A DNA stretch of 64,000 bases from Candidatus Woesearchaeota archaeon (GCA_016211215.1 JACQSR010000028.1:11423-75422); one strand, 5' to 3'. Counted from the first letter of the stretch, positions 2,464 through 37,488 are shown. The notes: generated by a model from the sequence alone, not told the origin. Translations and numbers: made by a program.

Positions 2464-2559
2464 GTTGTTGGATGAAACTGAAAAGTTTACGGATTTACCA
2501 AGTAAACCTCCGGAAATTCCTGCGATGAATTTATTAAGCGGTTGTCCGTACCGGAAGGA

Positions 2560-3498
2560 ATGAAAAAGGCACTGCTTTTGATTGCCCTCGTTGCAATACT
2601 CTCAGTAATTGACGCCCCAAAGCAGGAGCAGGCAGAGTTGGTTGACAATCCGTTCCGGGTGTATTTTTGCCCGCGCCAGGATTGCCTTTCACCCATGTTA
2701 GCTGAAATGGAAAAGGCCTCTTCATACATCCACTGCGCGTTTTACGAGCTGAAATCCAAAGAGATTGTGGGGTTACTGGCAGCAAAATCAGCCTCCATTG
2801 ATGTCAAGCTTATAGTTGACGAAAACAACAACATTTCCGGCTCAAAGAGAGTTCCGGAAAAGAATACCATGCACAACAAGTTCTGCGTCATTGACGGAAA
2901 GACTACCATGACCGGCTCGCTGAACCCAACTCCACCAGGTTTTTCAAAAAACAACAACAACCTGCTTATTGTAAACTCAAGAAATGTCGCAGGTAATTAC
3001 GGGGAAGAATTCGAAGAGCTTTGGGCAGGGACATTTGGCGGCGGGGAAAAAACAAGGCATCCGAAAATGAGTGTCAACAATATAAGCATCGAGACATATT
3101 TCTGCCCGGAAGACAGCTGCGAGGCAAGGGTGATAAGTGAGATAAAAAACGCAAAATCCTCAATTTATTTCATGGCGTTCAGCTTCACCAGCGACGCAAT
3201 TGCAGACGCCATTCTTTCGTCAAGGGCTTCCTACAGGGGCATCATAGAAAAGTCCCAGAACTCCAGGTTTTCCGTTTACCCTTATTTGGACAATTCAAGA
3301 CTTGACTCCAACCCTTACCTTATGCACCACAAGGTTTTCATCATTGATAACAGCACCCTGATTACCGGCTCCTTTAATCCAACCCAGAACGGCAACATGC
3401 ATAATGACGAAAACATAATAATAATCAGGGATAGCAATGTTGCCAGGCCTTACCTTGAAGAGTTCGGGATTCTGTGGCAGGATTCGCTTCGCGGCTAA
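2560..3498 (+). CDS. membrane-anchored/secreted phospholipase D (HKD) superfamily protein, nuclease or phospholipase
   Basis: Two HKD motifs are present (HNKFCVIDGKTTMTGSLN and HHKVFIIDNSTLITGSFN). The N-terminal hydrophobic helix is MKKALLLIALVAILSVI. Confidence 0.8.
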   Translation: MKKALLLIALVAILSVIDAPKQEQAELVDNPFRVYFCPRQDCLSPMLAEMEKASSYIHCAFYELKSKEIVGLLAAKSASIDVKLIVDENNNISGSKRVPEKNTMHNKFCVIDGKTTMTGSLNPTPPGFSKNNNNLLIVNSRNVAGNYGEEFEELWAGTFGGGEKTRHPKMSVNNISIETYFCPEDSCEARVISEIKNAKSSIYFMAFSFTSDAIADAILSSRASYRGIIEKSQNSRFSVYPYLDNSRLDSNPYLMHHKVFIIDNSTLITGSFNPTQNGNMHNDENIIIIRDSNVARPYLEEFGILWQDSLRG

Positions 3499-13500: not shown

Positions 13501-15572
13501 CATGAGATATTTATGTATATATCAACTCCAGTAACCCCGTCGCCCTCATTCCTCCCATGCCTAACTGCATTTGCTTCAGTATAGTTGGCAATGAACCACT
13601 GTCCACTTGAAGTGTTATATACCTCCAAGCGCCCGGCATAAAGCCCTGAAACTGAATCGTTCCACATTGTAACGACATTAATCTGGCTTCCCTCTGCAAC
13701 GGCATTTGTATCTGTATAATTTATCACATCCCCGCCTGTCCACGAGCGTGAGAAGTTGCTATTCTCCGTGACATAAGAACGATTCATCTCAAATATGTAA
13801 TGGAATGGTGGCTTTGTGTCGACGTAAAGAGCTAAGACACCATGGGCGTTCGAGTGGTTTTGAAGCTGCCCTTTTCCATCCCTCGCACTAGCATTCACAG
13901 TCCACGTGCCACCAAGGCCATTCACAGAATCCTCAAGGGTGACATTAAACGAGCAGTACACAGTAGTATTGGAAAGATTGGCTGTAGCTGTTGGACTGCA
14001 TACCAACTTCCCATTCTTTAAAGAGAAGTTGTAATTTGGTTGTCCACCGGTATTATTATTGACGGTAATGTTAATCGAATCATTATCCAGACCAACGCCG
14101 GTATCGTTAAATGACATATTGATTACTACGCTGTTTGATGAAAGGTTCACATTACAGCTGTCAACGCAACCATCACTATTAACAGACATAATATTCGGCG
14201 GCTGCAAATCCGTTGACTCACCCACTCCCGAAAAGTGGTCTACGTATATTGCAGTCTTTCCGCTCTCAGTGCGCCAGCATCCTGCGCCTATTGTCAATGA
14301 TGCGTTCTCATAATAAACTGTATCACTGCACTCAGAAAGCGCAAAGCAGTTTGGAGCCGAAGCAGTTCCGTTGCAGTAATATTTCCTGTCGGAAGTCCTT
14401 CCCATCACAATCTTGCCGTATCTGTACGATACAAAATCCGGAATGAAGTTGCTTACGTTAAGCCATGCGGCAGTGCTGTTGAACCCCTCATTCCCTCCAA
14501 GCGCCCCGTTAAACGTGGACATTCTCGTCTCAATCTGGGTTGTGTTCACGCCTGCAAGCCTCGATGAGTTTATGTTCAGGCCAACCAGGGAAACATTAAT
14601 GACATTCCCAAGAACATCTGTGAAGTTGAAAACAAGAGTGTAATTATTCAGGACGGGGTCAAAGAAGTGGTTGGCGCCCGGCAGCTGCCATCCGCTGTTC
14701 GCGCTTGAGTTTGCTATATATATCCTCATCCTTGCTGAGCCGTTCGACCACTTCATGTCTTCCATTGAGGACATGTTGCTTCCCCTGATTATCAGCGCAT
14801 TCGCAACTCCGGATGTAACTCCGGTGGTATTTCCGCATGCAACGTTTCCTGCTGTATCATTTGCGCAGAACAATATCGCGTGGTCTCCCGGAGCTGTCCT
14901 GTTATCCGCAAAGAAGGGAGTAATATTCATCTCGTAAATAGTGCCGGTGGCATTAATGACAATGCCTGTATTTGCATTAGTCGGGTCTGCCATCATAAGG
15001 GTCAGGTTCGCGCCGTAAGGTGCTGTCGAACGCTCATAAATAACCACCCATACGGAATGCAATCCCGCAAATCTCTCATCTGCAACAGTAACATTTACGA
15101 CAATCGGCATACTGGTATAATTCGCCTGAGTTGGATCCAACCCTATCGGCTTTAAGGGCAAAATTGCAGGTGGAACTGCATCTATGTGCACAGTAAAATT
15201 AGTTGGCGAATAATTGAAAAGGGCACCAGTCGACTTGTTATATACTCTACACGTCCAGTCGAAAGTTAAGTTTGTTACAGTACTTGGAAGTGATATGTTG
15301 AAAGTCTGAACGGTCCCGTTCTCTGTAGAAAGGTTAGTGCTCTTGTTCTCCCAAGACCCAGTATCATTGGCCCAAAGAGAGATATTGGTGAAGTTCCCCT
15401 TCGAGGCGTTGCAGGTAAAGGAAATCGTTCTGTTAGAAGTGTTTATGTTGTTATCAGGTGTCAGAAGCTCTACCCTGTCAACTATCCCCATGACCGCAAT
15501 GGAGACTAACGCCAGGCAGAACAAGACCATGAACAGGAACAAGCTAAGGCTGAACCTTCCGTCTTTTTGCAT
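10506..15572 (-). CDS. giant cell-surface glycoprotein (FN3-like domain, poly-Gly linker, PGF-pre-PGF-like domain, C-terminal TM anchor)
   Basis: The 1688-aa protein has an N-terminal signal/TM and N-x-S/T sequons roughly every 10-15 residues. An FN3-like segment (LTAGTLYYFNVTY) and a GSGGGSGGGGGGGGG linker follow. A domain ending ...SPGFSYFAIGS, a Pro/Glu-rich spacer and the TM LIATIIIVLVLLAVLVGYYLY complete the C-terminal part. Confidence 0.85.
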   Translation of the reverse strand: MQKDGRFSLSLFLFMVLFCLALVSIAVMGIVDRVELLTPDNNINTSNRTISFTCNASKGNFTNISLWANDTGSWENKSTNLSTENGTVQTFNISLPSTVTNLTFDWTCRVYNKSTGALFNYSPTNFTVHIDAVPPAILPLKPIGLDPTQANYTSMPIVVNVTVADERFAGLHSVWVVIYERSTAPYGANLTLMMADPTNANTGIVINATGTIYEMNITPFFADNRTAPGDHAILFCANDTAGNVACGNTTGVTSGVANALIIRGSNMSSMEDMKWSNGSARMRIYIANSSANSGWQLPGANHFFDPVLNNYTLVFNFTDVLGNVINVSLVGLNINSSRLAGVNTTQIETRMSTFNGALGGNEGFNSTAAWLNVSNFIPDFVSYRYGKIVMGRTSDRKYYCNGTASAPNCFALSECSDTVYYENASLTIGAGCWRTESGKTAIYVDHFSGVGESTDLQPPNIMSVNSDGCVDSCNVNLSSNSVVINMSFNDTGVGLDNDSINITVNNNTGGQPNYNFSLKNGKLVCSPTATANLSNTTVYCSFNVTLEDSVNGLGGTWTVNASARDGKGQLQNHSNAHGVLALYVDTKPPFHYIFEMNRSYVTENSNFSRSWTGGDVINYTDTNAVAEGSQINVVTMWNDSVSGLYAGRLEVYNTSSGQWFIANYTEANAVRHGRNEGDGVTGVDIYINISWKLPSGHNWFGAGTKNLSLRVVVNDTVGNSNTSVQNFTIKVNDTTSAVITGLFINGTNSSAKNNLSSNTVKLNFTFTETADIVWINYSVDGDRAVTGETVAGLFRSFSISDGLITSQADLNSLKTSDNAQASWGLPLRIPTAATLAEGNHSINLSVMDNSSNKMTMIFSFIVDTTAPNATNSSSNYENDTRIRLMEPFTFLAGDYSGTGVKTAVYYTSCNTTSTSFKNSSSFQPFNNSICAGVAQAVTLTINATDYAGNSNVTIWRYQVDDVVPVINSFTVTTGGDQLVGLSWNASDAFTNISNITYFIDTNNTAYTLGNGTAINSTTLNVSIGTHTIKLRANDSVGNSINGSVITFTVQGPVSTGGHLDRIREYNVNNTRTNSSFSMTLANGTTKFSGSGYMNQSLDLVITANHTRLAEFTNVTIKVDNGSKLMWDLNFGVSVNNTNFITNVENYYRVKVERLIYFNETFDRFMTDNSTYYAIVTLSNATGADSYNKLMWFPSVSTVIGAGSFTNVTSCSALSLTDASYSTSTDTVPCYNSSRPENFTKVFVPHFGALVAANDSIPPNITIITPPKTNITVSTFQFNISVTLDAVACEFAYNRTNLAINGSMNITPDQGGYKLCTSMYINVNRSYPLIRDNVTFYVTDEAGNKNITWVWFNVSDTSAPNTTGPVGLTVVGRTQVNLNWNATEHVNSTVSYGDTAALGSTVDSSAIQAEQTVSVTGLTAGTLYYFNVTYCDYQQNCRTNGTFNATTDAAESTAAAGSGGGSGGGGGGGGGAAGIESNIAAKASQYWTSVPANSEISVGVTNTKIAITDVTTTVANSLTSVTLNVFSLKDKPSTTSAPVTNVYQYLEIKPEGLETKDVSSVDIRFKITQQWLKDLGIAKEDVVLYRFVGGGWVALTTKTVKYDTMYVYYSAASPGFSYFAIGSSAVPPTVVPPSEEKPVVQPEEPVEEAPVAPVVEEKGQGGLIATIIIVLVLLAVLVGYYLYERKRAS

Positions 15573-18797: not shown

Positions 18798-21107
18798 CTA
18801 CTGAGTAGGATTTTCTACATCAGGAGGTACTGTCACAACCTTAAATTCTTTTTTTGCTACACCTCTTTCTAGTACCTCGCCGTCAATAATACCCCTCAAA
18901 ACAGGAGATATCTGGTCATAATAAGCGTCATTGACAGGGAATCTCCAGCCCCTAAATTTCTGTCTTAAATCTGTACCAGTAGCAGCACTCATTGCAGCAA
19001 CAATAAACGTTTCTCCTTTACCAACCCCAACAGTATCATAAAGATACCAGTAATCAGGATGGAACGCCTTAAAGAACCTTGGATAAACTTCCCAGCCATA
19101 AGGATTAACCGAAGAATCCTCAGCAATCTCAACAAATATACCATCCATGATGTTCGCATCAAATAATTTAGAGTTAGGTTCATGGGGGTCATCAGGATAA
19201 AAGTATCCATTGTTTGTGTAATCATTTAAGTCATTCTTATAACTCTGAAAAGAATCAAACTGATCCATTAATGTATTGGTGGTATCGGCATTAAAACCAT
19301 ATTGACCACTCCTTTCAATTAATTTATTTATACTATACATCCCAAGCAATGTCGCCCAACCTTCTCCATATCTATTCCAATCATATTCATAAAGTCCTGG
19401 GAATTTATCTGAAAATATGTATATCAAAAAGTCATGTCCCAACTCGTGATAAAGAACCCCCCAACGTGGTACATCTGTTCCTTCAACTAACAGACATCCA
19501 AATCCGATATAAATAGGTTGCCCGGCCCACCCACATGCAGGATAATTAAAAACAAATAATTGATTATCATAATCTCCCCAATGATTCGGCATTCCGGTCA
19601 ATTCTTTTTCTATCTCTAAAGCATAATGTGACACTTTGGGTATTTCGTACTTCTCTATTCCTTCTTTATATTTGAAAGTATAATAATCAAGTCTTCCTGG
19701 AAATTGAGCTGTCATTTCATCAGGGAAAACGAAAGCTACTCGTCCATACTTGTAAAGATTTCCCGATACACCCATAATGAAATCATCAACAAGAACATCA
19801 CAACTACTATCAAACCTAGTAATAACAGACCAATCTGAATTATGAGTTTCTGTAAGCAGAGGGAAATTGTTCCAAACCTGATTGCCTTCGATATTTGCAA
19901 TATCAACCCTAGCAGCATTATAACCTAATCGGTTTTGGGTCCTGAAAGAACCTGAACCTTGTGAACCAGATACACTCAAAATCCTCCGCTCACCATCCGG
20001 CCTTAAATTGATACTTTTTGGAGATTCAGAAAAGACATATTTATCCGCATTGATACTGATACCATAGCCGGGTTTGCTATAATCGATACTCAATTCAACA
20101 ACCTCTGTTTGATCTCCGCCAGGAACTTCATTAGAAATGCCTCCCACAAAAAACTTAATTTTAGTGGGATTCCCAATCGCTCCGAGTGGAAGTAACCCGT
20201 ATGCACTACCCCTTATTGAAATTGCCTTTGGTTCAAAATTAGGGACTAATTGACCACTAGTTGGGTAAATTGGAACAGACCAAGATCCCATGTTATACTG
20301 AATGTGAACATTATAGTCCACTCCAATACCATTAAGTGGATTACCCGTATTAGGGTCGTTATCTGCATCAATAAAAAAGATATACCCAAGATAATCTGGC
20401 AATACTGAATTTTCAATATCTGCTCTAACTGTAGTTTTCAATTGCAAAACGTTCCCAACTTGTTTTGCTTCAGAATATAAAATGTCCATATTCCCTTCAT
20501 CAAAGTCTTCTGGATCACCAACAGAAACAATTGGAAACTCAGGGCAACTAACCTCGCAATCTTCAGGGCATGTTCCTGCTAAGCACGGCATCTTACACGC
20601 AGGTATCTGATAAACACATGGAGGACAATAATCTGCTTCTCCCTCCTCGCAAATCCCATTTCCGCAAAAAGGACCGGATTCGCATCTGCATTCCTTAGTG
20701 CATGTTTCCTCATCACCGCAGTAAAACGGAGGAGTAGGGGCAGTAGGGTCGCATTGCTCCGGAGGTGTTACATAGCCATCTCCGCATGCGCACTCTCCAG
20801 AATGAAGTATTTCAACATTTTTGCAGTCTGCTTCGCACTGGTTTCCATATGTTACGCCATCAGAGCCGCAGACCGGCATGTATATTTCAGGGCACGAGCA
20901 AACTTCACATCCTTCATCAACTCCGCCGTCGCAGTTGTCATCAATGCTGTTGCAAACCTCAATAGCGCCAGGGTTAACATCTGGGTTTCTGTCGTCGCAG
21001 TCGATGTTTGAAGGGTAGCCATCTTTGTCAAAGTCGAATACACAGCTTACGATAAATAGAGATATTAGGGCTAGTAATGCTAACAGCAATGCCCTCTTTG
21101 CTCCCAT
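18798..21107 (-). CDS. secreted Cys-rich protein with Kazal-type domain and C-terminal HExxH metallopeptidase-like domain
   Basis: The signal/TM is MGAKRALLLALLALISLFIV. DCDDRNPDVNPGAIEVCNSIDDNCDGGVDEG is a MopE-like metal-binding repeat. CPEIYMPVCGSDGVTYGNQCEADC fits the Kazal pattern, and a later YHELGHDF is an HExxH motif. Confidence 0.7.
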   Translation of the reverse strand: MGAKRALLLALLALISLFIVSCVFDFDKDGYPSNIDCDDRNPDVNPGAIEVCNSIDDNCDGGVDEGCEVCSCPEIYMPVCGSDGVTYGNQCEADCKNVEILHSGECACGDGYVTPPEQCDPTAPTPPFYCGDEETCTKECRCESGPFCGNGICEEGEADYCPPCVYQIPACKMPCLAGTCPEDCEVSCPEFPIVSVGDPEDFDEGNMDILYSEAKQVGNVLQLKTTVRADIENSVLPDYLGYIFFIDADNDPNTGNPLNGIGVDYNVHIQYNMGSWSVPIYPTSGQLVPNFEPKAISIRGSAYGLLPLGAIGNPTKIKFFVGGISNEVPGGDQTEVVELSIDYSKPGYGISINADKYVFSESPKSINLRPDGERRILSVSGSQGSGSFRTQNRLGYNAARVDIANIEGNQVWNNFPLLTETHNSDWSVITRFDSSCDVLVDDFIMGVSGNLYKYGRVAFVFPDEMTAQFPGRLDYYTFKYKEGIEKYEIPKVSHYALEIEKELTGMPNHWGDYDNQLFVFNYPACGWAGQPIYIGFGCLLVEGTDVPRWGVLYHELGHDFLIYIFSDKFPGLYEYDWNRYGEGWATLLGMYSINKLIERSGQYGFNADTTNTLMDQFDSFQSYKNDLNDYTNNGYFYPDDPHEPNSKLFDANIMDGIFVEIAEDSSVNPYGWEVYPRFFKAFHPDYWYLYDTVGVGKGETFIVAAMSAATGTDLRQKFRGWRFPVNDAYYDQISPVLRGIIDGEVLERGVAKKEFKVVTVPPDVENPTQ

Positions 21108-21128: not shown

Positions 21129-21725
21129 CTATAAAAACCTTTTGATTTTCATTCGCTTAAAGACAAACATAATAAGCACTCCAGCAGCGCTCCCCAGCAC
21201 ATTCGCCATTAAGTCAGTCATTGAATCTCCCCATGAGCCGCCCCTCACCTTTTCGCTCCAGTCCCCGCTGCCATAAAAGAAAAAACCGTCTCCCTGGCCC
21301 AGAAGCAGGTAGCTCGTGTATTCTATCATCTCCGTGAACGCTCCCGCCCCAACTGAAATCAGGATTACCACTGCTATGAGGCTCGGCTTTGAAATAGATG
21401 TGCTTTTCTCGAGCACCCTGTAGAACAAAATGGAGGCAACGACAAACGCATAAAAATGCACCACTTTGTCAAACATGATAAATGAAAACTCCCTGCCGTA
21501 AAGGCCGAAGATTCCGGCAGAATGAAGTATGAAAAAGGCATTAAGCGCCGCAGTAAGCGCATAATTCATCCTCACCCTTTCATAAAAGCGCAAAATGAGT
21601 AGGTTAGATATTACGAAAAGAATGTTCTCCGGGATAAACCAATAGTTGCCATTCAGCACCCCATAAAACAGAAAAACCAGCTGGACAAATATGAACACGA
21701 GCACAAGATTTGTTCTTCCTTTCAT
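21129..21725 (-). CDS. polytopic membrane protein (function unknown)
   Basis: Several hydrophobic helices are present. The start is trimmed to ATG 21725 so that it abuts the upstream stop at 21722. Confidence 0.5.
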   Translation of the reverse strand: MKGRTNLVLVFIFVQLVFLFYGVLNGNYWFIPENILFVISNLLILRFYERVRMNYALTAALNAFFILHSAGIFGLYGREFSFIMFDKVVHFYAFVVASILFYRVLEKSTSISKPSLIAVVILISVGAGAFTEMIEYTSYLLLGQGDGFFFYGSGDWSEKVRGGSWGDSMTDLMANVLGSAAGVLIMFVFKRMKIKRFL

Positions 21726-22414
21726 CGTCCGTTGCATTCTTCGGGCTTTTCCCCGTAAGCGCCGCATATCTCCTTTTCAAGCACGTCTTTTTCGGTAAAC
21801 CCCGAGAAGGTTTTCCCGTTCATCACAATCGAAGGGAAAGTTGTGACATTGTAGGTTGTCTTCAGCATGTCAAGCAGCGGCTCATTCTGAAGCGTGTTGT
21901 CAAACGCAAAATTCAGCAGCCTTTCCTTGAACACCTTTTTGAGATATGTAAGAACAAACGCCTGCCCGTCGCACTTCGGGCACTCCTCGGCGTTCGTAAA
22001 AAAGTAGAGCACAGTTGCAACATCCGCACCGCAAAGGTCTTTTGATTTTTTTGCAAGAAGCCAGTACCTCAGCTGCGCATGCAGGTATTCCCTCTTCAGC
22101 AGCAAGAACTCTTCCCTGTTTATCGCAGCATTCTCCTCGTATGACTCAAGCCGTATCCTTATTTTTTCAAGGGATTCCACATTTTCGTTGAATGTTGCGA
22201 GCAATGCGGCGCAGTTGTTTTCCCTCTCAAGCTCGTTTACAATCTCAAACTGGAGCTGGAGGCTTGAAAAATCAAGCGACTGCTGCTTTGCCTGCGACTC
22301 AACAAATGCTACCCTTTTCCCCTCGACCACAAGCCCTAAAAGAACACCCAGCATAAATATTACGGCAGTAATTGCGCCTGCAATGATATAAGTTCGCCTG
22401 CTTATTTCTTTCAT
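21722..22414 (-). CDS. membrane-anchored thioredoxin-fold protein (CPKC)
   Basis: An N-terminal TM is followed by a coiled-coil-like segment and then VLYFFTNAEECPKCDGQ, a CxxC in a thioredoxin/DsbA-like context. Confidence 0.55.
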   Translation of the reverse strand: MKEISRRTYIIAGAITAVIFMLGVLLGLVVEGKRVAFVESQAKQQSLDFSSLQLQFEIVNELERENNCAALLATFNENVESLEKIRIRLESYEENAAINREEFLLLKREYLHAQLRYWLLAKKSKDLCGADVATVLYFFTNAEECPKCDGQAFVLTYLKKVFKERLLNFAFDNTLQNEPLLDMLKTTYNVTTFPSIVMNGKTFSGFTEKDVLEKEICGAYGEKPEECNGR

Positions 22415-22418
22415 CGGA

Positions 22419-23675
22419 TTACCACTTATGCTGCCTGTTTAAAAGTATATCTAAAGCCACTCCCACCCATATGAGGCCGAGCAAAAGAAAATACCCGAGC
22501 ATATACACGAAAACAGGCATTAGGCCATGCCTCATTTCATGCTCCCTCGTAAACTTGTGGGACTTGATAAAAATAAAAATTGAAACTGCAAGCATCGCCA
22601 CGGCCACTAAAATCGTGGAGTAATCCAAATCGAGGAAATAAAAATTCAGTTCGAGTGTTTTTATGAATGTCCAAAAATCGAAATTGACAAACCCCAGGTT
22701 GTAAATGTAGCGGAGACCGGGCTCAAATGTGTAATATAAAAACGAAATGACCAATATAATTGCAATAACCCCGCCACCCATCAAGATGGGCATTTGTATG
22801 AACCCGAAATCGCCGTATTTTTTGTTGAATAGCATTTCCCTGTATTTTACCGAATTGATGACCGCGCCCTTAAACCACCTGTTTCTCTGGCGGTAAAGCG
22901 CCGAAAGTGTTGAAGGCGCTACAGTCGTAACATTTGTGTGCGGCAGCTGTATTATTTTATAGCCTTTCTTCTGCAGCCTGAGCGCCATCTCAAGGTCCTC
23001 GGTTAGGTTCCTGTTTTCGTCAAACCCGCCTACCTCCAGCAGGGACCGCCTGCGGTATATCGAGAAGGGGCCGGGTATCACATGGACGCAGTCAAGCTTG
23101 CCCATCAGCTCTTTGAAGAACATGTTTACCAGATACTCATAGGATTGCAGTTTTTCCAGTAGATTTTTTGGATTTCTTACCTTAAGGACTGGGAGCACCG
23201 CCGCAACTTTTTCATCGCCGAAATAGGGCAGCATTTCAAACAGTGCATTTTTTGTCACATACGAATCAGCATCAAGGCAGACAAAAAACTCTCCTGAAGC
23301 GAACTTGTTGCCTTTGTTCATGGCAGCCCCTTTTCCACCGTTCTTCTGCCTAACAAGTGTAACCGGAAATTTCCTCTTTTTTGTGATAAACTCTTCTACC
23401 AAGGCGTATGTATCATCCTTGCTCCCATCATCAACCACAAAAATCTCGAGTTTGTCAGAGGGATATTTCAGCGACAGCGCGGATTTAAGTGTCTGTATTA
23501 CCCTTTTCTCCTCGTTGTACGCCGGGATTACAATTGAAACATTTGGAGGTGTTTTCATGGAAGGTAGTTTGTGTTTTCCATCTTTTTTTTCAATAAACAC
23601 CAGGAACCAGAATAATGAAAAATAAAGCGCAACAAAATAAGAAACATACAGGATAATCTTTATGGTCCAGTTCAT
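22419..23675 (-). CDS. processive family-2 glycosyltransferase (membrane-integrated)
   Basis: VSIVIPAYNEE, VVDDGSKDDT, CLDADS and QRNRWFKG (the QxxRW motif) are present, with flanking TM helices. A TATA-like GATTTATAAAAT lies about 25 nt upstream. Confidence 0.85.
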   Translation of the reverse strand: MNWTIKIILYVSYFVALYFSLFWFLVFIEKKDGKHKLPSMKTPPNVSIVIPAYNEEKRVIQTLKSALSLKYPSDKLEIFVVDDGSKDDTYALVEEFITKKRKFPVTLVRQKNGGKGAAMNKGNKFASGEFFVCLDADSYVTKNALFEMLPYFGDEKVAAVLPVLKVRNPKNLLEKLQSYEYLVNMFFKELMGKLDCVHVIPGPFSIYRRRSLLEVGGFDENRNLTEDLEMALRLQKKGYKIIQLPHTNVTTVAPSTLSALYRQRNRWFKGAVINSVKYREMLFNKKYGDFGFIQMPILMGGGVIAIILVISFLYYTFEPGLRYIYNLGFVNFDFWTFIKTLELNFYFLDLDYSTILVAVAMLAVSIFIFIKSHKFTREHEMRHGLMPVFVYMLGYFLLLGLIWVGVALDILLNRQHKW

Positions 23676-29039: not shown

Positions 29040-29131
29040 TAAGTATCCCTATATTGCCCATTCTTCAGTTTCGCAAACATTGATAAATTAAATCCCGTTC
29101 CCAAATAGCTATAGCGTTGACAAATAAAGCG

Positions 29132-29800
29132 ATGAAAAGAAGAACCTTTCTGGGAATAGGAATGGGGTTGGCAGCCCTGGCATTTGGCTATTTTAATGCC
29201 CAAAAAAAGAATGAAGGCAGAATAAAGGAGCGGGGCTTGGTTGTTGCTGTAAGCGAGGACAAAAAATCCATGCTTGTCAGAGGCTATGACAGCAAACTCT
29301 ACTCTGCAGCTGAAAATTTCACAGGCGACTGGACCAATCTTACCGAGGGTGACGAGGTAGTTGTTTATGGAACTGACAAGAAAAAAAGCACCGCCACCGG
29401 TTATTTGCCGGGCAATTTCAAGGTTGACGGCCCGGTTGTCGAAGTTGACCTTTACGCCCTTGAAATCAAGCGCTCCAGAAAAACTGAACTGCAGAAGGAT
29501 AATCTAAAAAGCTTCGGAGATTTTACTTATGAAGATAACCTTGAAGTAAAGCTGGAGCAAGGCAGGCACACACTTGACATTTGGTCTTACAGTGTTAAGT
29601 ATGGCGAGGGCGCCTCTTACATAGCAGACAGATTCAACATCGAAGACAAAGAATCTGGCGATTTAAGGCTGAATGCAACAATATCCGATGTGTACTTATT
29701 CCTCGCGGATTCCCGGGGAGCAAAAAAGCTTGTGCCTGTCGAATTTAATGCGCTGAAGCCAGGCGATGTTGTTTATGTGGTTCCAAAGCCGCCTCAGTAA
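29132..29800 (+). CDS. secreted hypothetical protein with Tat-like signal
   Basis: MKRRTFLGIGMGLAALAFGYFNAQ carries the twin-arginine RRxFLG. ATG 29132 is preferred over TTG 29117. Confidence 0.5.
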   Translation: MKRRTFLGIGMGLAALAFGYFNAQKKNEGRIKERGLVVAVSEDKKSMLVRGYDSKLYSAAENFTGDWTNLTEGDEVVVYGTDKKKSTATGYLPGNFKVDGPVVEVDLYALEIKRSRKTELQKDNLKSFGDFTYEDNLEVKLEQGRHTLDIWSYSVKYGEGASYIADRFNIEDKESGDLRLNATISDVYLFLADSRGAKKLVPVEFNALKPGDVVYVVPKPPQ

Positions 29801-30911: not shown

Positions 30912-32102
30912 TTGACAAAAAGAGGACAGGGAGGCATTAACGCTGCAATCTTGGTTGCTATAATTTTCGGCCTGATACTTCTCTACATACTTGCCATCCC
31001 CCAAAAGGACCGTGATGTGATTTTGGATGGAAATTCAGGCACGACAACCATAGTGTCATCCGGGAGCTCCGCCAATACCACCTTGCTCAAGGAGGCAGTT
31101 GGCACCATTGAAGACCGCGATTTGGACAAGGGCGAGCACGACATACCTTCCTTTACACTCTTCCAGACAGCAGGCGCAAAGGTTCTTAAAAAAGTCCCGT
31201 CCTTCCAGGTCAGGAACGGCATTTTCGATTTCAGTCCCCGCGAAGTGAGGTTTTCCACTCCAGACGCAAGCCTGACGAGCAATGTTCTGCTCTCATTTTC
31301 AGTAAGCAAGGCCCAGGGCACATTAATCATCAAGCTTAACGGCAACAATATATTTGAGGGCGGCTTGGAAGGCTCTGCCCCGCAGCCAATCTCTCTTTCA
31401 AAGGAAGACCTTAAGGACGAAAACGTGCTTGAGTTCTCAGTTTCCGGAGTTGGCTGGAAGTTCTGGACCACAAACCAGTACCAGGTTGACGAGTTCCTGA
31501 TTACCGCAGACATTTCAGACAAGAGCAGGCAGTCTTCCAGGTCAGTTTTCTTCGTCAGCAGGAAGGAATTTGACAATCTGGAGACTTCATCATTCAGGTT
31601 CAACCCGGAGTGCAGCCCCTCAAATGTAGGCATCCTTGATGTTCAGCTCAACTCAAGACCTTTGTTTTCAGGCGTTCCTGACTGCGGAACCGTAAACAAG
31701 GTTGAGTTTCCGCCAACTCTTCTTGAGCCGGGGGAGAACGTCATCGGGTTCACGACCACCAAAGGCACATACCTGATAGACCAGGTGCAGGTTAAGACCG
31801 AGCTTGTCAAGGAAGTTTTCCCAATTTTTTACTTTGATGTGAACGAGACTGTATTCAGCGACATAACCAACAAGACAGTTGATGCAAGTGTGGAACTTGA
31901 CTTTGTGGATGACGACAACACCAAGCGCCTCGACCTTAACATCAACGGCCATCTTACAAATGTTGACCAGAAGAAGCCTACATTTTCAAGGAAGATTACC
32001 AGCTGGATTGAGGAAGGAAACAACTACATAGAGATACGGCCAAAGACGCGGGTAAACATCGTTGAGTTGAGGGTAATCCTCGAAGAAATCGAGGAAGAGT
32101 AG
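30912..32102 (+). CDS. surface protein with pilin-like / signal-anchor N-terminus, first gene of five-gene operon
   Basis: The TTG start is preceded by the SD AGGTGA. The N-terminus is MTKRGQGGINAAILVAIIFGLILLYILAI. The body shows three internal repeats of an L-x-[IVL]-x-[LI]-N-[GS]...G-x-N-[VY]-[LI]-[EG]-[FI] pattern. Confidence 0.6.
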   Translation: MTKRGQGGINAAILVAIIFGLILLYILAIPQKDRDVILDGNSGTTTIVSSGSSANTTLLKEAVGTIEDRDLDKGEHDIPSFTLFQTAGAKVLKKVPSFQVRNGIFDFSPREVRFSTPDASLTSNVLLSFSVSKAQGTLIIKLNGNNIFEGGLEGSAPQPISLSKEDLKDENVLEFSVSGVGWKFWTTNQYQVDEFLITADISDKSRQSSRSVFFVSRKEFDNLETSSFRFNPECSPSNVGILDVQLNSRPLFSGVPDCGTVNKVEFPPTLLEPGENVIGFTTTKGTYLIDQVQVKTELVKEVFPIFYFDVNETVFSDITNKTVDASVELDFVDDDNTKRLDLNINGHLTNVDQKKPTFSRKITSWIEEGNNYIEIRPKTRVNIVELRVILEEIEEE

Positions 32103-32126: not shown

Positions 32127-34553
32127 ATGGCTGATGATAAAACAAGTGGAAGTTCTGAAAGCGGCAAAAAGGATGATGAAAAAGTGCATTCTGAAGAGGA
32201 GGAAAAAAGGCTTAGAAAAAGCGTTAAAGAATCTCTAAAAGAATATTTCCCGACATTTTCAGCTGCCCCGGGGAAAGTAAACGCCGCCCTAAAAACAGAT
32301 GTTTCCCCTTATATGAAGAGCTTTTACGAGAGGCTTCTGAAAAAAGAGGAATTTGGCGGAGAGGAGAAGAAAAGCATTTTTGTATCGCTTCTTGCCTTAG
32401 CCCTTTTTGTACTTGTTTTTTCTTTGGATTTTTCTGGAAGGTTTTCATGGAGTTTTTACATTAGATTCCTGATATACCTTGTTCTGAGCGCAATCCTGTT
32501 CTTGGTTCTACTTGCAAAATCCAAAATGGACGATAGAAAAAAGGCCTCGTATGTTCTAATACTTTTCATTTACTCGCTGCTGCTTCCAACATTTTTTGGA
32601 TTTATTCAGCAGTATTTCGGCTTTGTTGGTCTAACCTCTATCGCGATAATCCTTCTGCTTCCATTAGGGCCCGTAATTTTCTTGGAAAAAGTAGATTTTA
32701 TGCACCCAAAAATAAAGAGTTTTATTGTCTTTTTTTATGCGCTTGTAATGATACTGCTTTTAGTGCCTTATATTAGCAATATAACGAACCTAACTGCAGT
32801 AGACCATCTGTTCAACACCCTTTCTCAGTATGCCCCGCAAGTGTCTCCTAAAGACGGGTTGGAGAGTTGGTTAGGTGCAGTAGACAAAATGAAAGAAAAC
32901 GCAAAGAAAAGCTGGATGCGCCAAATCAACTACGCCACCGGCGGCTATTACAACGGAGTTGTTGAGGAAAATGAAAAGGAGCCGCTTGGCGTCTATCTCG
33001 AAGGCATTAAGCCAACCGAAAAGCAGTTTTTCATGAACGAGCCGGTAAGCGTCTGGGGAACGTTAAAGGCAAAGAACCTTGACACGGATAATCCCATAAT
33101 CATCAATCTGTTCTGCTCGGGAAAGCACGGCAAGAATGAAGTTTTCGGCAGCATAAACCCCGATGAGATTCCAGACGAATATTCCGGGGAAAGCAGCCCT
33201 GAATTTGAGAAAAATGACCAGGACCTTGAAGTGTACTATCTCGACGAAAAAGACATTCAATGCGACTTCAAGGAAGGCCAGCTTGACAAGGGCTCATCCC
33301 AGGTTGCAGTTAACGCAGTCTTCAACTTCCAGACACTTTCATACCTGAAAACTTATTTCATGAACCTTGAAACCCTGCGCACCCTGAACCGTGAAAACAT
33401 TGACCCGTTCAGCCAGTACGGAATTACGGAAAAAAATCCGCAGGCAGTGTTCACAAACGGCCCTGTAAAGATTGGCATGGAGCTTAGAAATCCGCCTATA
33501 GGCATAAGCCCCGATTCAGACACAAAAGTACGGCTCGGAATCACAGTTGAAAACCGATGGGAAGGCGAAATCAGGCAGCTCAGGAGGCTTGTGGTTTATC
33601 TCCCCGAAGGAATGGAACCCGACGAGACCTGCGATATTTTTGAGGAAGATACGGACCCAAAACCAGAAGACCTTGGGTTGAGAAATGAATTGGACAGAAG
33701 AACGTACAAGGCATATAAGCTGAAAGAGATTGAATCAAATCCAAGCTACAGGGACATAAAGGAATTCGTTTCCGTTGTTTGCTTCCTCAAAATACCTTCC
33801 GACGGCATAGAAACATTGCTCGCGGAATCCCCGTTCTCGACGCGCTACATACGCGCAACGGCGGAATATGACTACAACCTCAAAAAAGAGGTTGCCGTGC
33901 GCATAGAGCCGCCAAAGGGATTTTTCATGCAGATATCGCCGGCAAAGGCAACTTCTGCAGACAGCCTGAATTGCGAGGTTTCAAACTCAGACTTCAAGAT
34001 AAAAGTCAATAAATTCGAATTCAAGGTTGATGACCAAGATGCAATAACCCCTGCAAAAACCTGCGATAGCGATGGAAAGAAGTGCTCCATCACCCTGCAG
34101 CCCCAAAAGAAAGGGAGCAAAGTAACATGCACAGTTAATGCTGAAAGGTACACGGATATAGTCGAGGATGTAATCGAATCAGGCCTCGACACAAATGCAT
34201 TCGATACATACAAGGACTCAGTTGAAATGATAGTTGGTAATTCATTGCCTGTCTTTAGGGGATTGGCTTTTGAAAAGGTGGATGCTGCCTGGTTTTGCAA
34301 GGCAAAGGTTGAAGATAAAGACGAAGATGATTCAGTCTCCCTGAATTACAGGTTTGAGGGCGACATAAACAGCAACGGCAAAGAGGTAAGCTGCAGTAAA
34401 AGTGGAGAGTTATGGGAGTGCATGGCTCCATTGCCTTCAGAGGACATTGACGGAAAGCGCACCACGTGCAAGGCAAGGGCTTTTGATGGCTATTCATTCG
34501 GAAAGGAAGCCTCAGTTTCTCACTCATTTCCATTGACAGGAGGCTCAACATGA
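32127..34553 (+). CDS. polytopic membrane protein with large ectodomain (contains one copy of the module found in the three downstream lipoproteins)
   Basis: A charged N-terminus is followed by about 6 hydrophobic helices (residues about 85-225) and then a roughly 580-aa hydrophilic region. Motifs in that region (NGPVKIGMEL, ITVENRWEGEI, AEYDYNL) parallel the downstream paralogs. Confidence 0.7.
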   Translation: MADDKTSGSSESGKKDDEKVHSEEEEKRLRKSVKESLKEYFPTFSAAPGKVNAALKTDVSPYMKSFYERLLKKEEFGGEEKKSIFVSLLALALFVLVFSLDFSGRFSWSFYIRFLIYLVLSAILFLVLLAKSKMDDRKKASYVLILFIYSLLLPTFFGFIQQYFGFVGLTSIAIILLLPLGPVIFLEKVDFMHPKIKSFIVFFYALVMILLLVPYISNITNLTAVDHLFNTLSQYAPQVSPKDGLESWLGAVDKMKENAKKSWMRQINYATGGYYNGVVEENEKEPLGVYLEGIKPTEKQFFMNEPVSVWGTLKAKNLDTDNPIIINLFCSGKHGKNEVFGSINPDEIPDEYSGESSPEFEKNDQDLEVYYLDEKDIQCDFKEGQLDKGSSQVAVNAVFNFQTLSYLKTYFMNLETLRTLNRENIDPFSQYGITEKNPQAVFTNGPVKIGMELRNPPIGISPDSDTKVRLGITVENRWEGEIRQLRRLVVYLPEGMEPDETCDIFEEDTDPKPEDLGLRNELDRRTYKAYKLKEIESNPSYRDIKEFVSVVCFLKIPSDGIETLLAESPFSTRYIRATAEYDYNLKKEVAVRIEPPKGFFMQISPAKATSADSLNCEVSNSDFKIKVNKFEFKVDDQDAITPAKTCDSDGKKCSITLQPQKKGSKVTCTVNAERYTDIVEDVIESGLDTNAFDTYKDSVEMIVGNSLPVFRGLAFEKVDAAWFCKAKVEDKDEDDSVSLNYRFEGDINSNGKEVSCSKSGELWECMAPLPSEDIDGKRTTCKARAFDGYSFGKEASVSHSFPLTGGST

Positions 34554-35515
34554 GGAAGTGGATTTTGCTTCTTGCAGTTTTTCTTGCGGCATGCACGACT
34601 AAGCCTTCATTCACAAGTGAGAATGTCTACGTCGGAACTGACGGAGTATCTTTGGCTTTCACAAAAAATTCCCCCCCTGCAGAAGTTTTTGAGAACAGCA
34701 TTTTTCCAGTCGGCATTGAAATCTGGAACAAGGGCGCATACAACGTTGAAGAAGGCTATGCCCTTGTCAATCTGGACCAGGACTACATGGAGCCGGGAGA
34801 ATTTACCGGGAGCACTTCTATTTTTCCTTCAGATGCATCAAAGCTTGATTTCCAGCTCATGGGAAAATCTGAAATAAGCCAGCAGGGCGACAGGGACACA
34901 ATAGGGCTTACCGTGCTCACAAAGCCAATAGACATCTTGAGCGAAAAGCACACCTCAACGGTTTCTGTAATGGCATGCTACCGCTATCAGACATTCGCAT
35001 CGCCTAATGTATGCATAGACACCGACCCTTTCGGCATAAGGGAGAATAAAAAATCCTGCACGGTATCTGACATTCCCCTGACAGGCGGCCAGGGAGCCCC
35101 AGTTGCAGTAACCAAAGTCGAGGTTAAGATGCTTCCGTCAAAATCACAGGACAAGGTTGTTTCCCAATTCAGGATTTATGTCAAGAACATGGGCAACGGA
35201 CAGGTTGTTGACGCCTCAAAAGTAGCCGATGCATGCTCATCCGAAGGTCTCACAAAATCGGACATAAACTCGGTTTCTGTAAGCGCGCAGCTCTCAAACG
35301 GAATTGTCTTGGACTGCATACCAAAGCGCGAGGGTAATGGCGGCTTGGAGGGCTACCTGCGGCTTAAGGGAGAGGATTATGTCCTGTGCAATTACGAGGA
35401 AGGAGTTCCGATGGAGCTTGGCACATTCAAGACTACGCTTAACATAGCCCTCGATTACGGCTATATGCACTCAATATCCAAAGACGTAACAATCAGGAAA
35501 AGCGCAGTTATATGA
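34550..35515 (+). CDS. lipobox protein, paralog 1 of 3
   Basis: MRKWILLLAVFLAAC has the lipobox L-A-A-C, and the start forms an ATGA overlap with the upstream gene. Shared motifs are VCIDTDP, SCTV, GAPVAVT, KNMGNGQV and LDYGY. Confidence 0.7.
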   Translation: MRKWILLLAVFLAACTTKPSFTSENVYVGTDGVSLAFTKNSPPAEVFENSIFPVGIEIWNKGAYNVEEGYALVNLDQDYMEPGEFTGSTSIFPSDASKLDFQLMGKSEISQQGDRDTIGLTVLTKPIDILSEKHTSTVSVMACYRYQTFASPNVCIDTDPFGIRENKKSCTVSDIPLTGGQGAPVAVTKVEVKMLPSKSQDKVVSQFRIYVKNMGNGQVVDASKVADACSSEGLTKSDINSVSVSAQLSNGIVLDCIPKREGNGGLEGYLRLKGEDYVLCNYEEGVPMELGTFKTTLNIALDYGYMHSISKDVTIRKSAVI

Positions 35516-35552
35516 GTAAAATTTATAAGATGCTGATGGAAAGGGAGCTATA

Positions 35553-36524
35553 ATGGAGCAAAAGAGGGTATTTTTAGGTGTTCTTGTAATAGTCTCGCTG
35601 CTTATAATCGGCTGCAGCGGCTCTAAGGGAAACCAGCCAACTGCAGTTGAATTCAGGACCGGCTCCAGTGGCCTTGATGTAACCTTCCCGTCAGGAACGC
35701 CCCAGCAGATTTTTGAGAATGACATTGACGTCAGGATTCCGATTCAGGTGGAAAACAAAGGCGCATTCCCCCAGTTTGACGAGCTTTCCGAATTCACCGG
35801 CTTCCTGTGGGTTGGAGGCTATGACCCGAATATTCTGCAGGCATCTTTCGAGCAGGGCGACATAAGGAAGCAGCTCGACCCTGAAGAGCTCGAAGGCAGA
35901 AGCTCTTTCAACCAGCAGGGCGGCGTTGTATTGGAGTCCCTGATTTTAAGCGTTGGAGACCTTCCGTTGGGGACTGCAGTTTACGAGCCAACCCTTATCT
36001 TTTACCTTACCTATCTTTACAAATCAATTGCATCAGTTCCCGTATGCATAGACCCGGAGCCAAGAAGCATAAATGTAAAGGACAAGGTTTGCAGCCTTAC
36101 CGACTTCAGGAAAATATATTCAGTTGCGCCTCAGGGAGGTCCTGTTGGAATTACAAACGTCGAGGAGATTATTACCTCCAATCAGATTATCTTCAAGTTT
36201 GACCTCCAGAATTTCGGCACCGGCCAGGTTATTGCACGCGACCTTGTGTCATCAAACCCCAACGAGGGCTTTGACTGGCGAGACCTTAATCGTGTGCAGA
36301 TAGAGGATGTCCGCCTCGGCGACAGGTCCGTTGACAAGTGCAAGCCGGATTTGGGTGAGGAGGTCGAGCTTTTCCAGGGAATAGGGCATTTCCAGTGCAC
36401 CCTCTCTGTTGCCTCAATTGCGTCTGCCCAGGCTTACACCACACCCCTGACGGTAACGCTTACATATGGATACGCCCAATCCCAATTTAGAAATATTAAA
36501 ATACTAGAGGCAATCGAGATTTGA
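35553..36524 (+). CDS. lipobox protein, paralog 2 of 3
   Basis: ...VSLLIIGCSG has the lipobox I-I-G-C, and the SD is GGAAAGGGAG. Shared motifs are VCIDPEP, VCSL, GGPVGIT, QNFGTGQV and LTYGY. Confidence 0.7.
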   Translation: MEQKRVFLGVLVIVSLLIIGCSGSKGNQPTAVEFRTGSSGLDVTFPSGTPQQIFENDIDVRIPIQVENKGAFPQFDELSEFTGFLWVGGYDPNILQASFEQGDIRKQLDPEELEGRSSFNQQGGVVLESLILSVGDLPLGTAVYEPTLIFYLTYLYKSIASVPVCIDPEPRSINVKDKVCSLTDFRKIYSVAPQGGPVGITNVEEIITSNQIIFKFDLQNFGTGQVIARDLVSSNPNEGFDWRDLNRVQIEDVRLGDRSVDKCKPDLGEEVELFQGIGHFQCTLSVASIASAQAYTTPLTVTLTYGYAQSQFRNIKILEAIEI

Positions 36525-36540
36525 GAAAGGAGGGTTTCAC

Positions 36541-37488
36541 ATGACGAGAAAGGTAATAATTGCTTTATCGGTTATCATTATGCTTGCTGTTGTTGGGTGC
36601 GCCCAGAATACAACACCCGGAAGCAGCGCTTCTACACCATTCATCGGCGGCGTTATAGGCCTTGAAATGGGATTTGTCGAATCAGCCCCCCCAAAAGAGG
36701 TATTCGATGGCGGCGACTTCTCATTTGATACTGAAGTCAGGCTAAACAATGTAGGTGAGGCATTTGTCAAGAAAGAAGATGTCTTTGTAAAGATTTCCGG
36801 CATAGACCCTTCCGAGTTCAGCAAGACTGCCTCTCAGCTGGTAAAGAACCCGGATGACGACCTTGAGTCCACAAAGAAAGATGCGGACGGCGCAATAATA
36901 GAAGGCACCGAAACATTTGTTTCGTTCCCTGATTTCAACCACAAGAGCCAGCTCAGCGGAAACACTCCATTCACGTTCCGAGCAGATGTGTGCTACAAAT
37001 ACAAGACAATCGCAAATGCAAAGGCCTGCTACAAGGAAGACCTCCTCGACACAACTGACACAAACGTGTGCACTGTTAACGGGGACAAGACTGCCTATAA
37101 TTCAGGCGCGCCAGTAGCTATAACCTCTTTCAAGGAGCAGGCGAGCGGTAAGGACAAGGTTTCATTTGTATTCACCGTTGAGCACGTTGGAAGCGGGAAT
37201 GTTTTCAAGCTTAGCCAGAAATGCGACGACACCGTGCGCGCAAACGAGGACAGGGTTCTTGTAAAGATTGACACCGGTCTTCCAGGTCTTAGCTGCTCAG
37301 GGCTTTCAGACGGAAGCGATACATCCGGCTATGTCACCCTTCACAGCGGAAAAAGGGTAATCAGGTGCACCCAGACATTAAGCGAAAGTGACCGGACTGA
37401 TTTTGAGAAAGTGGTAATAATAGACCTTGATTATGATTACGAGGAGTTTATCGAGACCGGAGTCCTGGTAAAGCACGCAGGCAGCTGA
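36541..37488 (+). CDS. lipobox protein, paralog 3 of 3
   Basis: ...IMLAVVGCAQ has the lipobox V-V-G-C, and the SD is AAGGAGGG. Shared motifs are VCTV, GAPVAIT, EHVGSGNV and LDYDY. Confidence 0.7.
   Translation: MTRKVIIALSVIIMLAVVGCAQNTTPGSSASTPFIGGVIGLEMGFVESAPPKEVFDGGDFSFDTEVRLNNVGEAFVKKEDVFVKISGIDPSEFSKTASQLVKNPDDDLESTKKDADGAIIEGTETFVSFPDFNHKSQLSGNTPFTFRADVCYKYKTIANAKACYKEDLLDTTDTNVCTVNGDKTAYNSGAPVAITSFKEQASGKDKVSFVFTVEHVGSGNVFKLSQKCDDTVRANEDRVLVKIDTGLPGLSCSGLSDGSDTSGYVTLHSGKRVIRCTQTLSESDRTDFEKVVIIDLDYDYEEFIETGVLVKHAGS

Follow-up and report, generated by a model that had tools for sequence, protein, structure and literature searches.

A syntenic five-gene operon of Woesearchaeota encodes three paralogous putative lipoproteins and a membrane protein that probably carries a fourth, divergent module

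Within a window of 64,000 nucleotides from Candidatus Woesearchaeota archaeon (GCA_016211215.1, JACQSR010000028.1:11423-75422), we identified a five-gene operon, p396-p808-A-B-C, in which the final three genes encode anciently diverged paralogs (Table 1). The operon recurs in synteny across the woesearchaeal lineage. Its products may constitute a surface platform of fixed composition from which variable contact or lytic domains are displayed, a reading to which we assign a probability of about 0.45. The intergenic gaps are, in operon order, 24, -4, 37 and 16 nt, and the stop codon of p808 and the start codon of gene A share the stretch ATGA (34550-34553), which is consistent with translational coupling. 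The positions and lengths that an earlier note on this DNA had given for A, B, C and the 808-residue protein all agree with ours, and every motif quoted there was found in the translations. That note had described A, B, C and the upstream membrane protein; the unit comprises five genes including p396.

Table 1. Positions of the operon genes, of the two extracellular parts of p808 and of a further surface protein, counted from the first nucleotide of the window
Feature	Position	Strand	Description
p396	30912..32102	+	operon gene 1; ORF call
p808	32127..34553	+	808 aa, polytopic membrane protein; ORF call, hydropathy and AlphaFold model
p808 core ectodomain	32979..33917	+	residues ~285-597; candidate fourth A/B/C module
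p808 variable C-terminal region	33918..34553	+	residues ~598-808; all-beta, Cys-rich, 2-3 further sandwich domains
gene A	34550..35515	+	321 aa; LAAC, Cys15 at nt 34592-34594; all-beta ectodomain
gene B	35553..36524	+	323 aa; IIGC, Cys21 at nt 35613-35615; paralog of A
gene C	36541..37488	+	315 aa; VVGC, Cys20 at nt 36598-36600; most divergent paralog
PGF-pre-PGF protein	10506-15572		1688 aa; TIGR04213, E 3e-25; C-terminal TM anchor

The arrangement of the locus was compared among 79 related loci, each from a different species. Nearly all of those on contigs long enough to extend to the flanking genes follow the order pelota (-), p396-p808-A-B-C (+), RFC (-), and the operon order is also present in a relative of 30% identity. 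A, B and C are kept 1:1:1 and in fixed order in all 57 complete loci. In some genomes (e.g., at loci L054, L060 and L076) there are additional copies, or long forms that contain fn3 or Big_5 domains.

The three proteins align over their full length in BLASTP at 23-24% identity, already far beyond chance (A-B, E 1e-19; A-C, 3e-13; B-C, 2e-10), and comparison of profiles built from 57 orthologs per class gave still lower values (A-B, E 9e-70; A-C, 8e-36; B-C, 1e-42). In a neighbor-joining tree of the 171 sequences from 57 species, each positional class forms a pure clade (57/57), so the triplication is older than the sampled lineage. Thus the tandem triplication, and its old date, proposed previously from shared motifs, were both borne out. 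The purity of the clades together with the invariable gene order supports the age of the three paralogs and also their non-redundancy. Residues that are invariant and specific to one class number two in A, one in B and seven in C. The family spans ~3,280 clusters at 50% identity, none of the Pfam and NCBIfam models matched the three window proteins, and we found no description of it in the literature; with this breadth and no model of its own, it could be of use both to mark the lineage and as a target for study.

The N-termini of A, B and C (MRKWILLLAVFLAAC, MEQKRVFLGVLVIVSLLIIGC and MTRKVIIALSVIIMLAVVGC, respectively) conform to a lipobox rule of the PROSITE PS51257 style, namely a K/R-containing n-region, a hydrophobic h-region and [LVI][ASTVI][GAS]C with the cysteine at about position 15-35. 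The same holds for 51 of 57 orthologs of A, 55 of B and 56 of C. The cysteine itself is conserved in 96% of A and in 100% of both B and C among the 171 orthologs, it is invariant across a 70-sequence alignment, and the residue before it is [GAS] in all of the commonest variants tabulated. On the strength of these signals, A, B and C are predicted to be lipid-anchored, as had been proposed. In one species (L023) the lipoboxes of A and C are degenerate. The earlier note had also considered three lipobox proteins in a row unusual; this view did not hold, because SignalP-based surveys predict lipoproteins to be prevalent in DPANN, where the lipidation enzyme AliA (arCOG02177) occurs “with some gaps” (PMC12462473). 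A Pfam scan of the membrane proteins of the window, which included no AliA-specific model, gave nothing assignable, and no AliA was identified there.

The AlphaFold model of gene A (pLDDT 93) shows a two-part, all-beta ectodomain with very long edge strands at residues 133-150 and 293-316. Foldseek matched it only to tandem Ig-like proteins (among them integrin alpha, transglutaminase, complement C5, RbmA and DUF11), and neither Foldseek nor Pfam revealed a specific structural or family match. We read the ectodomain of A, B and C accordingly as a fused pair of Ig/CARDB/DUF11-like beta-sandwiches. CARDB (PF07705) did not reach its gathering score: the window proteins gave no match at E <= 1, and the second sandwich of one ortholog remained below threshold at 17.5 bits where 22.7 are required (E 0.0047). 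Gene A has six conserved cysteines. The pairs C155/C170 and C256/C280 (A-numbering) are ~100% conserved in all three classes, and C143/C229 is conserved at 84-98%, with both members jointly absent from window B. The pairs are likely to form disulfides, a role for which they had been singled out before.

The membrane protein p808 consists of a charged cytoplasmic N-terminus, about five TM helices at residues ~84-216 and a conserved ectodomain module of ~315 residues, followed by a variable C-terminal region. According to hydropathy, its orthologs contain from ~4 to 12 TM helices, a variation compatible with an anchor role that gives no mechanistic clue. The core ectodomain (pLDDT ~90-97) is the sole region conserved over 66 orthologs, and the minimal orthologs (502-572 aa) comprise the TM region and the module only, ending directly after it. 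The claim that this ectodomain repeats the A/B/C module a fourth time stood in part. BLASTP against A, B and C was not significant (best E 0.36), and hhalign with A, B, C and a profile merging all three gave E values of 0.035, 0.007, 0.006 and 0.01 with an HH-suite probability of only 1.5-6%. The motifs brought together by hhalign are exactly those paired in the earlier note. The hhalign matches are colinear over 161-176 columns, as are those of an HMM of the p808 ectodomain to members of the three classes (best E 7e-4). Agreement of secondary structure on the sequence-derived mapping was 0.62 and 0.80, compared with 0.33-0.51 for slid controls, and an alignment on secondary structure only scored 184.5 against 101 +/- 23 for shuffled elements (~3.6 SD above). 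The AlphaFold models of A and p808 share the order of these elements, including two strands of 18-25 residues. Based on the colinear profile matches at E ~0.01, this shared order and the minimal orthologs, the p808 core is probably a fourth, highly divergent A/B/C module, although the statistics for it are weak.

About half of the p808 orthologs carry a murein hydrolase domain, an aspect beyond the earlier note; these domains all lie C-terminal to the core module and are mostly SLT (~37-45%). Among ~46 homologs, Pfam identified SLT in 17, M23 in three, and Amidase_3 and NlpC/P60 in one each. Counted across species loci, SLT is present in 21 of 49, corresponding to at least eight gains or losses, with a looser count of 28 of 66. 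The window p808 had no Pfam match and was absent from the jackhmmer results for SLT (PF01464), and so contains no SLT or other hydrolase domain; its link to the bacterial wall therefore runs through orthology only. Matched by description, the SLT-bearing orthologs are probably the “large lytic transglycosylases” (fam00969) already noted in Woesearchaeota.

p396 combines an N-terminal membrane anchor, with the motif [KR][GAS]Q-G-G-x-NAA-LVAII...LYI-FLP..ER, and three tandem beta-rich repeats of ~90 residues (repeat 1 to repeat 2, E 3e-9; repeat 2 to repeat 3, E 6e-4). In loci that reach this far it directly precedes the ortholog of p808, and 49 of them encode a p396 of 350-450 residues. The best 120 of 149 homologs are all unnamed or “hypothetical” and carry no precomputed Pfam domain; among the matches listed, the length is constant and identity is mostly 38-45% at near-full coverage. 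The window protein matched no Pfam or NCBIfam model, and the best hit of a sequence search against the PDB reached only E 0.82. An assignment of p396 as an archaeal type IV pilin-like protein with a class III signal was rejected, as the FlaFind motif ([KRDE][GA][ALIFQMVED][ILMVTAS]x3 where the hydrophobic stretch begins) occurs in only three of 49 orthologs. Of the 49, 41 share the distinct motif [KR][GAS]Q-G-G.

In the reading that we favour, the four paralogous modules of A, B, C and p808, probably together with p396, would combine into a hetero-oligomer of constant make-up at the external surface of the cytoplasmic membrane. This platform would hold the variable C-terminal “payload” of p808 and expose it outward. 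The payload of the window p808, extra Ig-like domains, suggests adhesion or contact, and the murein hydrolase payload of about half of the related species suggests binding or local digestion of the bacterial wall. We infer heteromeric assembly from the 1:1:1 retention of the paralogs in a tight operon, and the operon products would physically assemble and act in cell-cell contact. However, ordered retention of paralogs fits independent functions too, and the homology between p808 and A/B/C lies below usual HH-suite significance. In addition, the universal presence of the operon and its housekeeping neighbourhood are equally compatible with a structural envelope role.

Under such a role, the five proteins would be building blocks or anchors of the cell's own S-layer or of a pseudo-periplasmic scaffold, with the hydrolase fusions as a secondary development. 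Archaeal S-layer proteins typically show strings of Ig-like beta-sandwiches with lipid or TM anchors, and Foldseek matched the p808 model to that of Haloferax (7PTP) along with many other Ig-like strings. The occurrence of the operon throughout the lineage and the good conservation of p396 at constant length fit as well. We nevertheless regard this reading as unlikely, given that the PGF-pre-PGF protein is a better S-layer candidate in the same window and that the operon supplies five proteins, whereas archaeal S-layers are described as one or two (PMC5744192). A, B and C could also be separate, non-interacting lipoproteins that act, for instance, as adhesins or bind ligands, each with its own specificity, and that shared regulation alone keeps in tandem, the likeness of p808 reflecting a common beta-sandwich fold. 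Adhesin families usually expand or contract, which contrasts with the strict order and separated clades in 57 of 57 loci, and the overlap of p808 and A also speaks against independence. Given these observations we consider separate functions unlikely, even with monomeric adhesin roles frequent among Ig-like lipoproteins, extra copies or fn3/Big_5 variants in some genomes and few class-specific invariant residues.

Bacteroidia type V pili of the FimA/Mfa1 family are built from lipoprotein precursors of ~300-400 residues with two beta-sandwiches, and several paralogs are encoded per operon. By analogy, A, B and C might be polymerising pilin-like subunits with p396 as a pilin-like component. Their size of ~320 residues, their lipoboxes, their shared operon and the long edge strands of A agree with this, and the N-terminus of p396 bears a superficial likeness to the signals of archaellins or pilins. 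Yet no type V pilin appeared among the best 50 Foldseek PDB matches, the class III motif is rare in p396, and neither an assembly ATPase nor a prepilin peptidase is encoded in the operon, which together render a fibre very improbable. Least credible is that the motif matches arose by chance or that A, B and C begin with plain Sec signals or TM anchors and receive no lipid. The pairwise and profile statistics refute chance, and cleavage by signal peptidase I would leave unexplained a cysteine at the end of the h-region that is kept in 96-100% of 171 proteins and follows [GAS] in all of the commonest variants tabulated; the degenerate lipoboxes of L023 and the fact that direct demonstration of lipidation in DPANN has never been reported weigh little against this.

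A bolder form of the platform reading, which we put forward as speculation and think improbable as it stands, would make the operon the core of a Woesearchaeota-specific contact organelle. Anchored in the membrane, a pseudo-symmetric hetero-oligomer of four double-sandwich modules would dock on other cells and, in many lineages, breach peptidoglycan through SLT, M23, amidase or NlpC/P60 heads. If true, this organelle would provide a molecular basis for episymbiotic or predatory life on bacteria. To our knowledge, bacterial hosts have not yet been demonstrated for any DPANN archaeon, and the abundant Woesearchaeota, which are tiny DPANN archaea, include no cultured member. The earlier molecular hint of their hosts and way of interacting consisted only of scattered “large lytic transglycosylase” genes. 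Our analysis assigns these genes to a conserved surface operon of five genes, in which a non-catalytic core module, common to the polytopic p808 and, probably, the three lipoproteins, is present with or without a hydrolase. Being well conserved, A, B and C also lend themselves as test substrates for work on lipoprotein biogenesis in archaea other than haloarchaea.

Like the large lytic transglycosylases of Woesearchaeota, for which we found no mention of the core module, the lipoprotein paralogy or the operon in the literature, the SLT-bearing p808 orthologs are large, membrane-bound, extracellular and lineage-restricted; the window p808, in contrast, is devoid of a hydrolase. The all-beta double sandwich of A, B and C differs from the alpha/beta solute-binding fold typical of haloarchaeal lipoproteins. 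In their K/R signal, hydrophobic core and [LVI][ASTVI][GAS]C they resemble the AliA/AliB substrates of Haloferax volcanii (PMC12462473). Type V pilus operons likewise encode tandem paralogous lipoprotein precursors with two beta-sandwich domains each, but the best Foldseek matches included none of that fold, archaea lack an outer membrane, and A, B and C contain no known maturation protease site. S-layers (Haloferax csg, 7PTP; Sulfolobales SlaA/SlaB) have in common with the operon products extracellular beta-sandwich strings and lipid or TM anchors, a generic similarity by Foldseek only, whereas the operon specifies five distinct products, known here from their genes, and among them four probable paralogous modules of 300 residues. 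Finally, the sandwiches share with CARDB/DUF11 repeats the N-x-G strand motif (“V.N.G.G.V”), and the top viral Foldseek match is a DUF11 protein; unlike those repeats, the A/B/C sandwiches appear as one fixed unit of ~300 residues with its own cysteine pattern.

For the lipobox triplication on this Candidatus Woesearchaeota (DPANN) contig, we identified a five-gene operon in which three consecutive lipobox proteins (A, B and C) follow p396, the first gene product, and p808, an 808-residue polytopic membrane protein. The intergenic gaps are 24, -4, 37 and 16 nt, the second being an ATGA overlap between p808 and A, and pelota and the RFC small subunit, encoded on the minus strand, border the operon on its two sides. 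All gene coordinates, lengths and motifs quoted in the earlier note proved correct. Pfam and NCBIfam scans returned no match for any of the five proteins. Elsewhere in the window, a protein of 227 aa carries a twin-arginine-like signal (KRRTFLGIG) and likewise matched no family.

Coordinates of the genes discussed, as positions in the window
Gene	Position	Strand	Description	NCBI protein (identity)
p396	30912-32102	+	operon gene 1	HY638_04665 (100%)
p808	32127-34553	+	operon gene 2	HY638_04670 (100%)
A	34550-35515	+	operon gene 3, 321 aa	HY638_04675 (100%)
B	35553-36524	+	operon gene 4, 323 aa	
C	36541-37488	+	operon gene 5, 315 aa	
PGF-pre-PGF protein	10506-15572	-	surface protein, 1688 aa	
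Further lipobox protein	18798-21107	-	769 aa	
CxxC protein	21722-22414	-	thioredoxin-like	
Glycosyltransferase	22419-23675	-	GT2	
Twin-arginine-like protein	29117-29800	+	227 aa	

Sequence comparison identifies A, B and C as paralogs, as had been proposed. BLASTP aligned them over their full length at 23-24% identity (A-B E 1e-19, A-C 3e-13, B-C 2e-10), and profile-profile comparison of class alignments, each of 57 orthologs drawn from related genomes, gave E-values of 9e-70 for A-B, 8e-36 for A-C and 1e-42 for B-C. In an NJ tree of the 171 sequences the positional classes were each perfectly monophyletic (57/57/57), with C the most divergent; this clean separation bears out the suggested old duplication. 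Searched with a profile, 1.84 billion cluster representatives yielded 3,280 members of the family (E <= 1e-3), and a scan of GTDB species genomes with 15 closer sequences as query located relatives in 134 stretches; 79 loci were fetched. According to an ORF and BLAST survey, the order pelota(-) / p396 p808 A B C (+) / RFC(-) is kept wherever the contig suffices, and p808-A-B-C adjoins RFC also in a relative at 30% identity. The triplication is therefore older than the sampled radiation, and since then the order of the genes has stayed frozen. The three lipobox paralogs are ancient and the five-gene operon is lineage-wide. Additional copies of type C or A occur in some species, as do long variants of B/C, which reach 1028 aa and are extended by Ig-like fn3 or Big_5 domains (L054, L060, L076, L078). 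Many public MAGs with the Woesearchaeota operon (L007-L079) are titled "uncultured Methanosarcinales archaeon", and others "Aminicenantes bacterium" (L010), "Methanosarcinales archaeon" (L036) or "Aenigmatarchaeota" (L048); such titles probably reflect mislabelling or contamination of the bins.

A PROSITE PS51257-type rule recognises the N-termini of A, B and C and those of 51/57, 55/57 and 56/57 of their respective orthologs; those that fail are mostly contig-end-truncated ORFs, doubtful starts or near-miss lipoboxes. The +1 cysteine is kept in 96-100% of each class of 57 orthologs and never varies in an alignment of 70 A homologs; A, B and C are thus lipobox proteins and predicted lipoproteins. 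The accompanying claim that three lipoproteins in a row are unusual is not supported: a SignalP survey predicted lipoproteins to be prevalent in DPANN, where the lipidation enzyme AliA has also been reported (PMC12462473), so such a tandem is not intrinsically surprising. One locus (L023) has degenerate lipoboxes in A and C (ISGYTRC, LIGGQKC). The window encodes a fourth lipobox protein (...LFIVSC), with an N-terminal MopE-type metal-binding motif, a Kazal-type inhibitor domain and an otherwise unannotated sequence. In a distant relative (L001), a SpoIIM-family membrane protein gene (2431-3279) precedes the operon by a few genes and is followed by two unannotated genes (396 and 243 aa); a genomic association of SpoIIM with AliA was reported in the AliA paper (PMC12462473).

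The AlphaFold2 model of A, built from the 70-sequence alignment, was of high confidence (pLDDT 93, pTM 0.87). We read its all-beta ectodomain as two fused beta-sandwiches, each half closing with a strand of unusual length (133-150 and 293-316), and this fold is predicted to be common to the A/B/C family. In Foldseek comparisons of the A and p808 models with the PDB, and of A with BFVD, the top matches were all generic tandem-domain proteins (Ig-like, FnIII or MG-domain) at TM-scores <= 0.25, those of A including integrin alpha, transglutaminase and complement C5 chains, RbmA and a viral DUF11 protein. Since neither a solute-binding-protein fold nor a double-jelly-roll capsid was among these matches, both ideas were rejected. 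In the PDB, sequence-profile searches based on the alignments of A and p396 gave nothing significant. As for cysteine pairs, C155/C170 and C256/C280 (A numbering) are ~100% conserved across the three classes and C143/C229 are 84-98% conserved; the window's B lacks both members of the last pair, as expected for a disulfide.

The only conserved part of p808 among 66 orthologs is an ectodomain of ~340 aa (residues ~250-597 of the window protein), directly after which the shortest orthologs (502-572 aa) stop. The earlier note placed a fourth copy of the module here. BLASTP of p808 against A, B and C was not significant, and hhalign of the ectodomain with A, B, C and the combined ABC profile gave E-values of 0.035, 0.007, 0.006 and 0.01 at an HH-suite probability of only 1.5-6%. 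These alignments span 161-176 colinear columns (p808 391-597 to A 136-319), with a second short colinear match of p808 287-316 to A 31-61 (E 0.058), and they pair the very motifs that the note had matched (NGPV.IG/GAPV.VT, ITVENRWEGEI/YVKNMGNGQV and AEYDY/LDYGY). Of the second-domain cysteine pair, p808 C552 aligns with A C280 in the ABC comparison and C502 with C252 of C, the equivalent of A C256, in the C comparison. Matches of an ectodomain HMM to A/B/C members were weak (best E 7e-4) and in every case colinear. The AlphaFold2 model of p808 (pLDDT ~90-97 over most of residues 285-600) repeats the strand succession of A, including two long strands (389-413 and 570-594). DSSP agreement on the sequence-derived mapping was 0.62 and 0.80 against 0.33-0.51 for slid controls, and a secondary-structure-only alignment scored 184.5 against 101 +/- 23 for shuffled elements. 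We consider a fourth copy probable, not proven.

C-terminal to the module, p808 proteins carry a variable and, judged by domain content, often muralytic payload. Pfam identified SLT in 17, Peptidase_M23 in three, and Amidase_3 and NlpC/P60 in one each of 46 homologs, and in the ten homologs for which domain positions were inspected, the hydrolase domains follow the conserved module on its C-terminal side. SLT occurs in 21/49 species loci, with at least eight gains or losses on a p396 tree. Large lytic transglycosylases of Woesearchaeota have been proposed to serve in attachment to, or attack on, bacteria (PMC8204110, PMC9723730). Pfam found no hydrolase domain in the window's p808, whose modelled C-terminus comprises 2-3 additional beta-sandwich domains. 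The transmembrane part, variable in helix number (~4 to 12) and poor in conservation, looks like an anchor; an enzymatic role was dismissed on the same grounds, together with low model confidence and zero Foldseek matches from the region.

Across the lineage, p396 is nearly constant in length and well conserved, mostly at 38-45% identity with near-full coverage. Its N-terminal anchor motif is [KR][GAS]Q-G-G-x-NAA-LVAII, of which [KR][GAS]Q-G-G is present in 41/49 orthologs; it is not a canonical class III signal, and its likeness to archaellin signals is superficial. A class III/pilin signal was rejected, as 46/49 orthologs fail the FlaFind rule. Three internal repeats of ~90 aa follow the anchor (r1-r2 E 3e-9, r2-r3 E 6e-4), and homology to the A, B, C or p808 profiles was not found (E >= 0.06).

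Among other surface genes of the window, the 1688-aa protein contains a PGF-pre-PGF domain (TIGR04213, E 3.4e-25, residues 1476-1620), then a C-terminal TM helix and a basic tail '...EEKGQGGLIATIIIVLVLLAVLVGYYLYERKRAS'. The protein is a plausible candidate for an S-layer protein or a major surface glycoprotein, and a "KGQGG + hydrophobic" stretch in it is curiously similar to the N-terminus of p396, 'KRGQGGINAAILVAII'. The glycosyltransferase is a multi-TM, processive, chitin/cellulose synthase-like family-2 enzyme with a QRNRW motif (Pfam GT2 E 2e-35, Chitin_synth_2 E 1.6e-9). The adjoining membrane-anchored CxxC protein (a weak Pfam match) may be relevant to extracellular disulfide formation.

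We tentatively propose, at a probability of about 0.45, that the four modules, probably joined by p396, would assemble into a hetero-oligomer that is anchored in the membrane, has a fixed composition and displays the p808 payload so that it can contact other cells. That the operon proteins serve in the envelope or an S-layer we judge rather unlikely, and this reading is weakened by the PGF-pre-PGF protein with its C-terminal anchor in the same window. That A, B and C, with their constant gene order, are independent adhesin-like paralogs we judge unlikely. A type-V-pilus-like fibre is highly improbable; type V pilins were absent from the top Foldseek matches of the A and p808 models in the PDB and of A in BFVD. 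Least probable of all, beside the profile-profile E-values and the conserved +1 cysteine, is a chance resemblance or the lack of a lipobox.

Full-text literature searches found no description of the operon, the four-fold paralogy or a hydrolase-independent conserved core. Taken singly, the ingredients are of already known kinds, namely archaeal lipoproteins, Ig-like surface proteins and Woesearchaeal SLT proteins.
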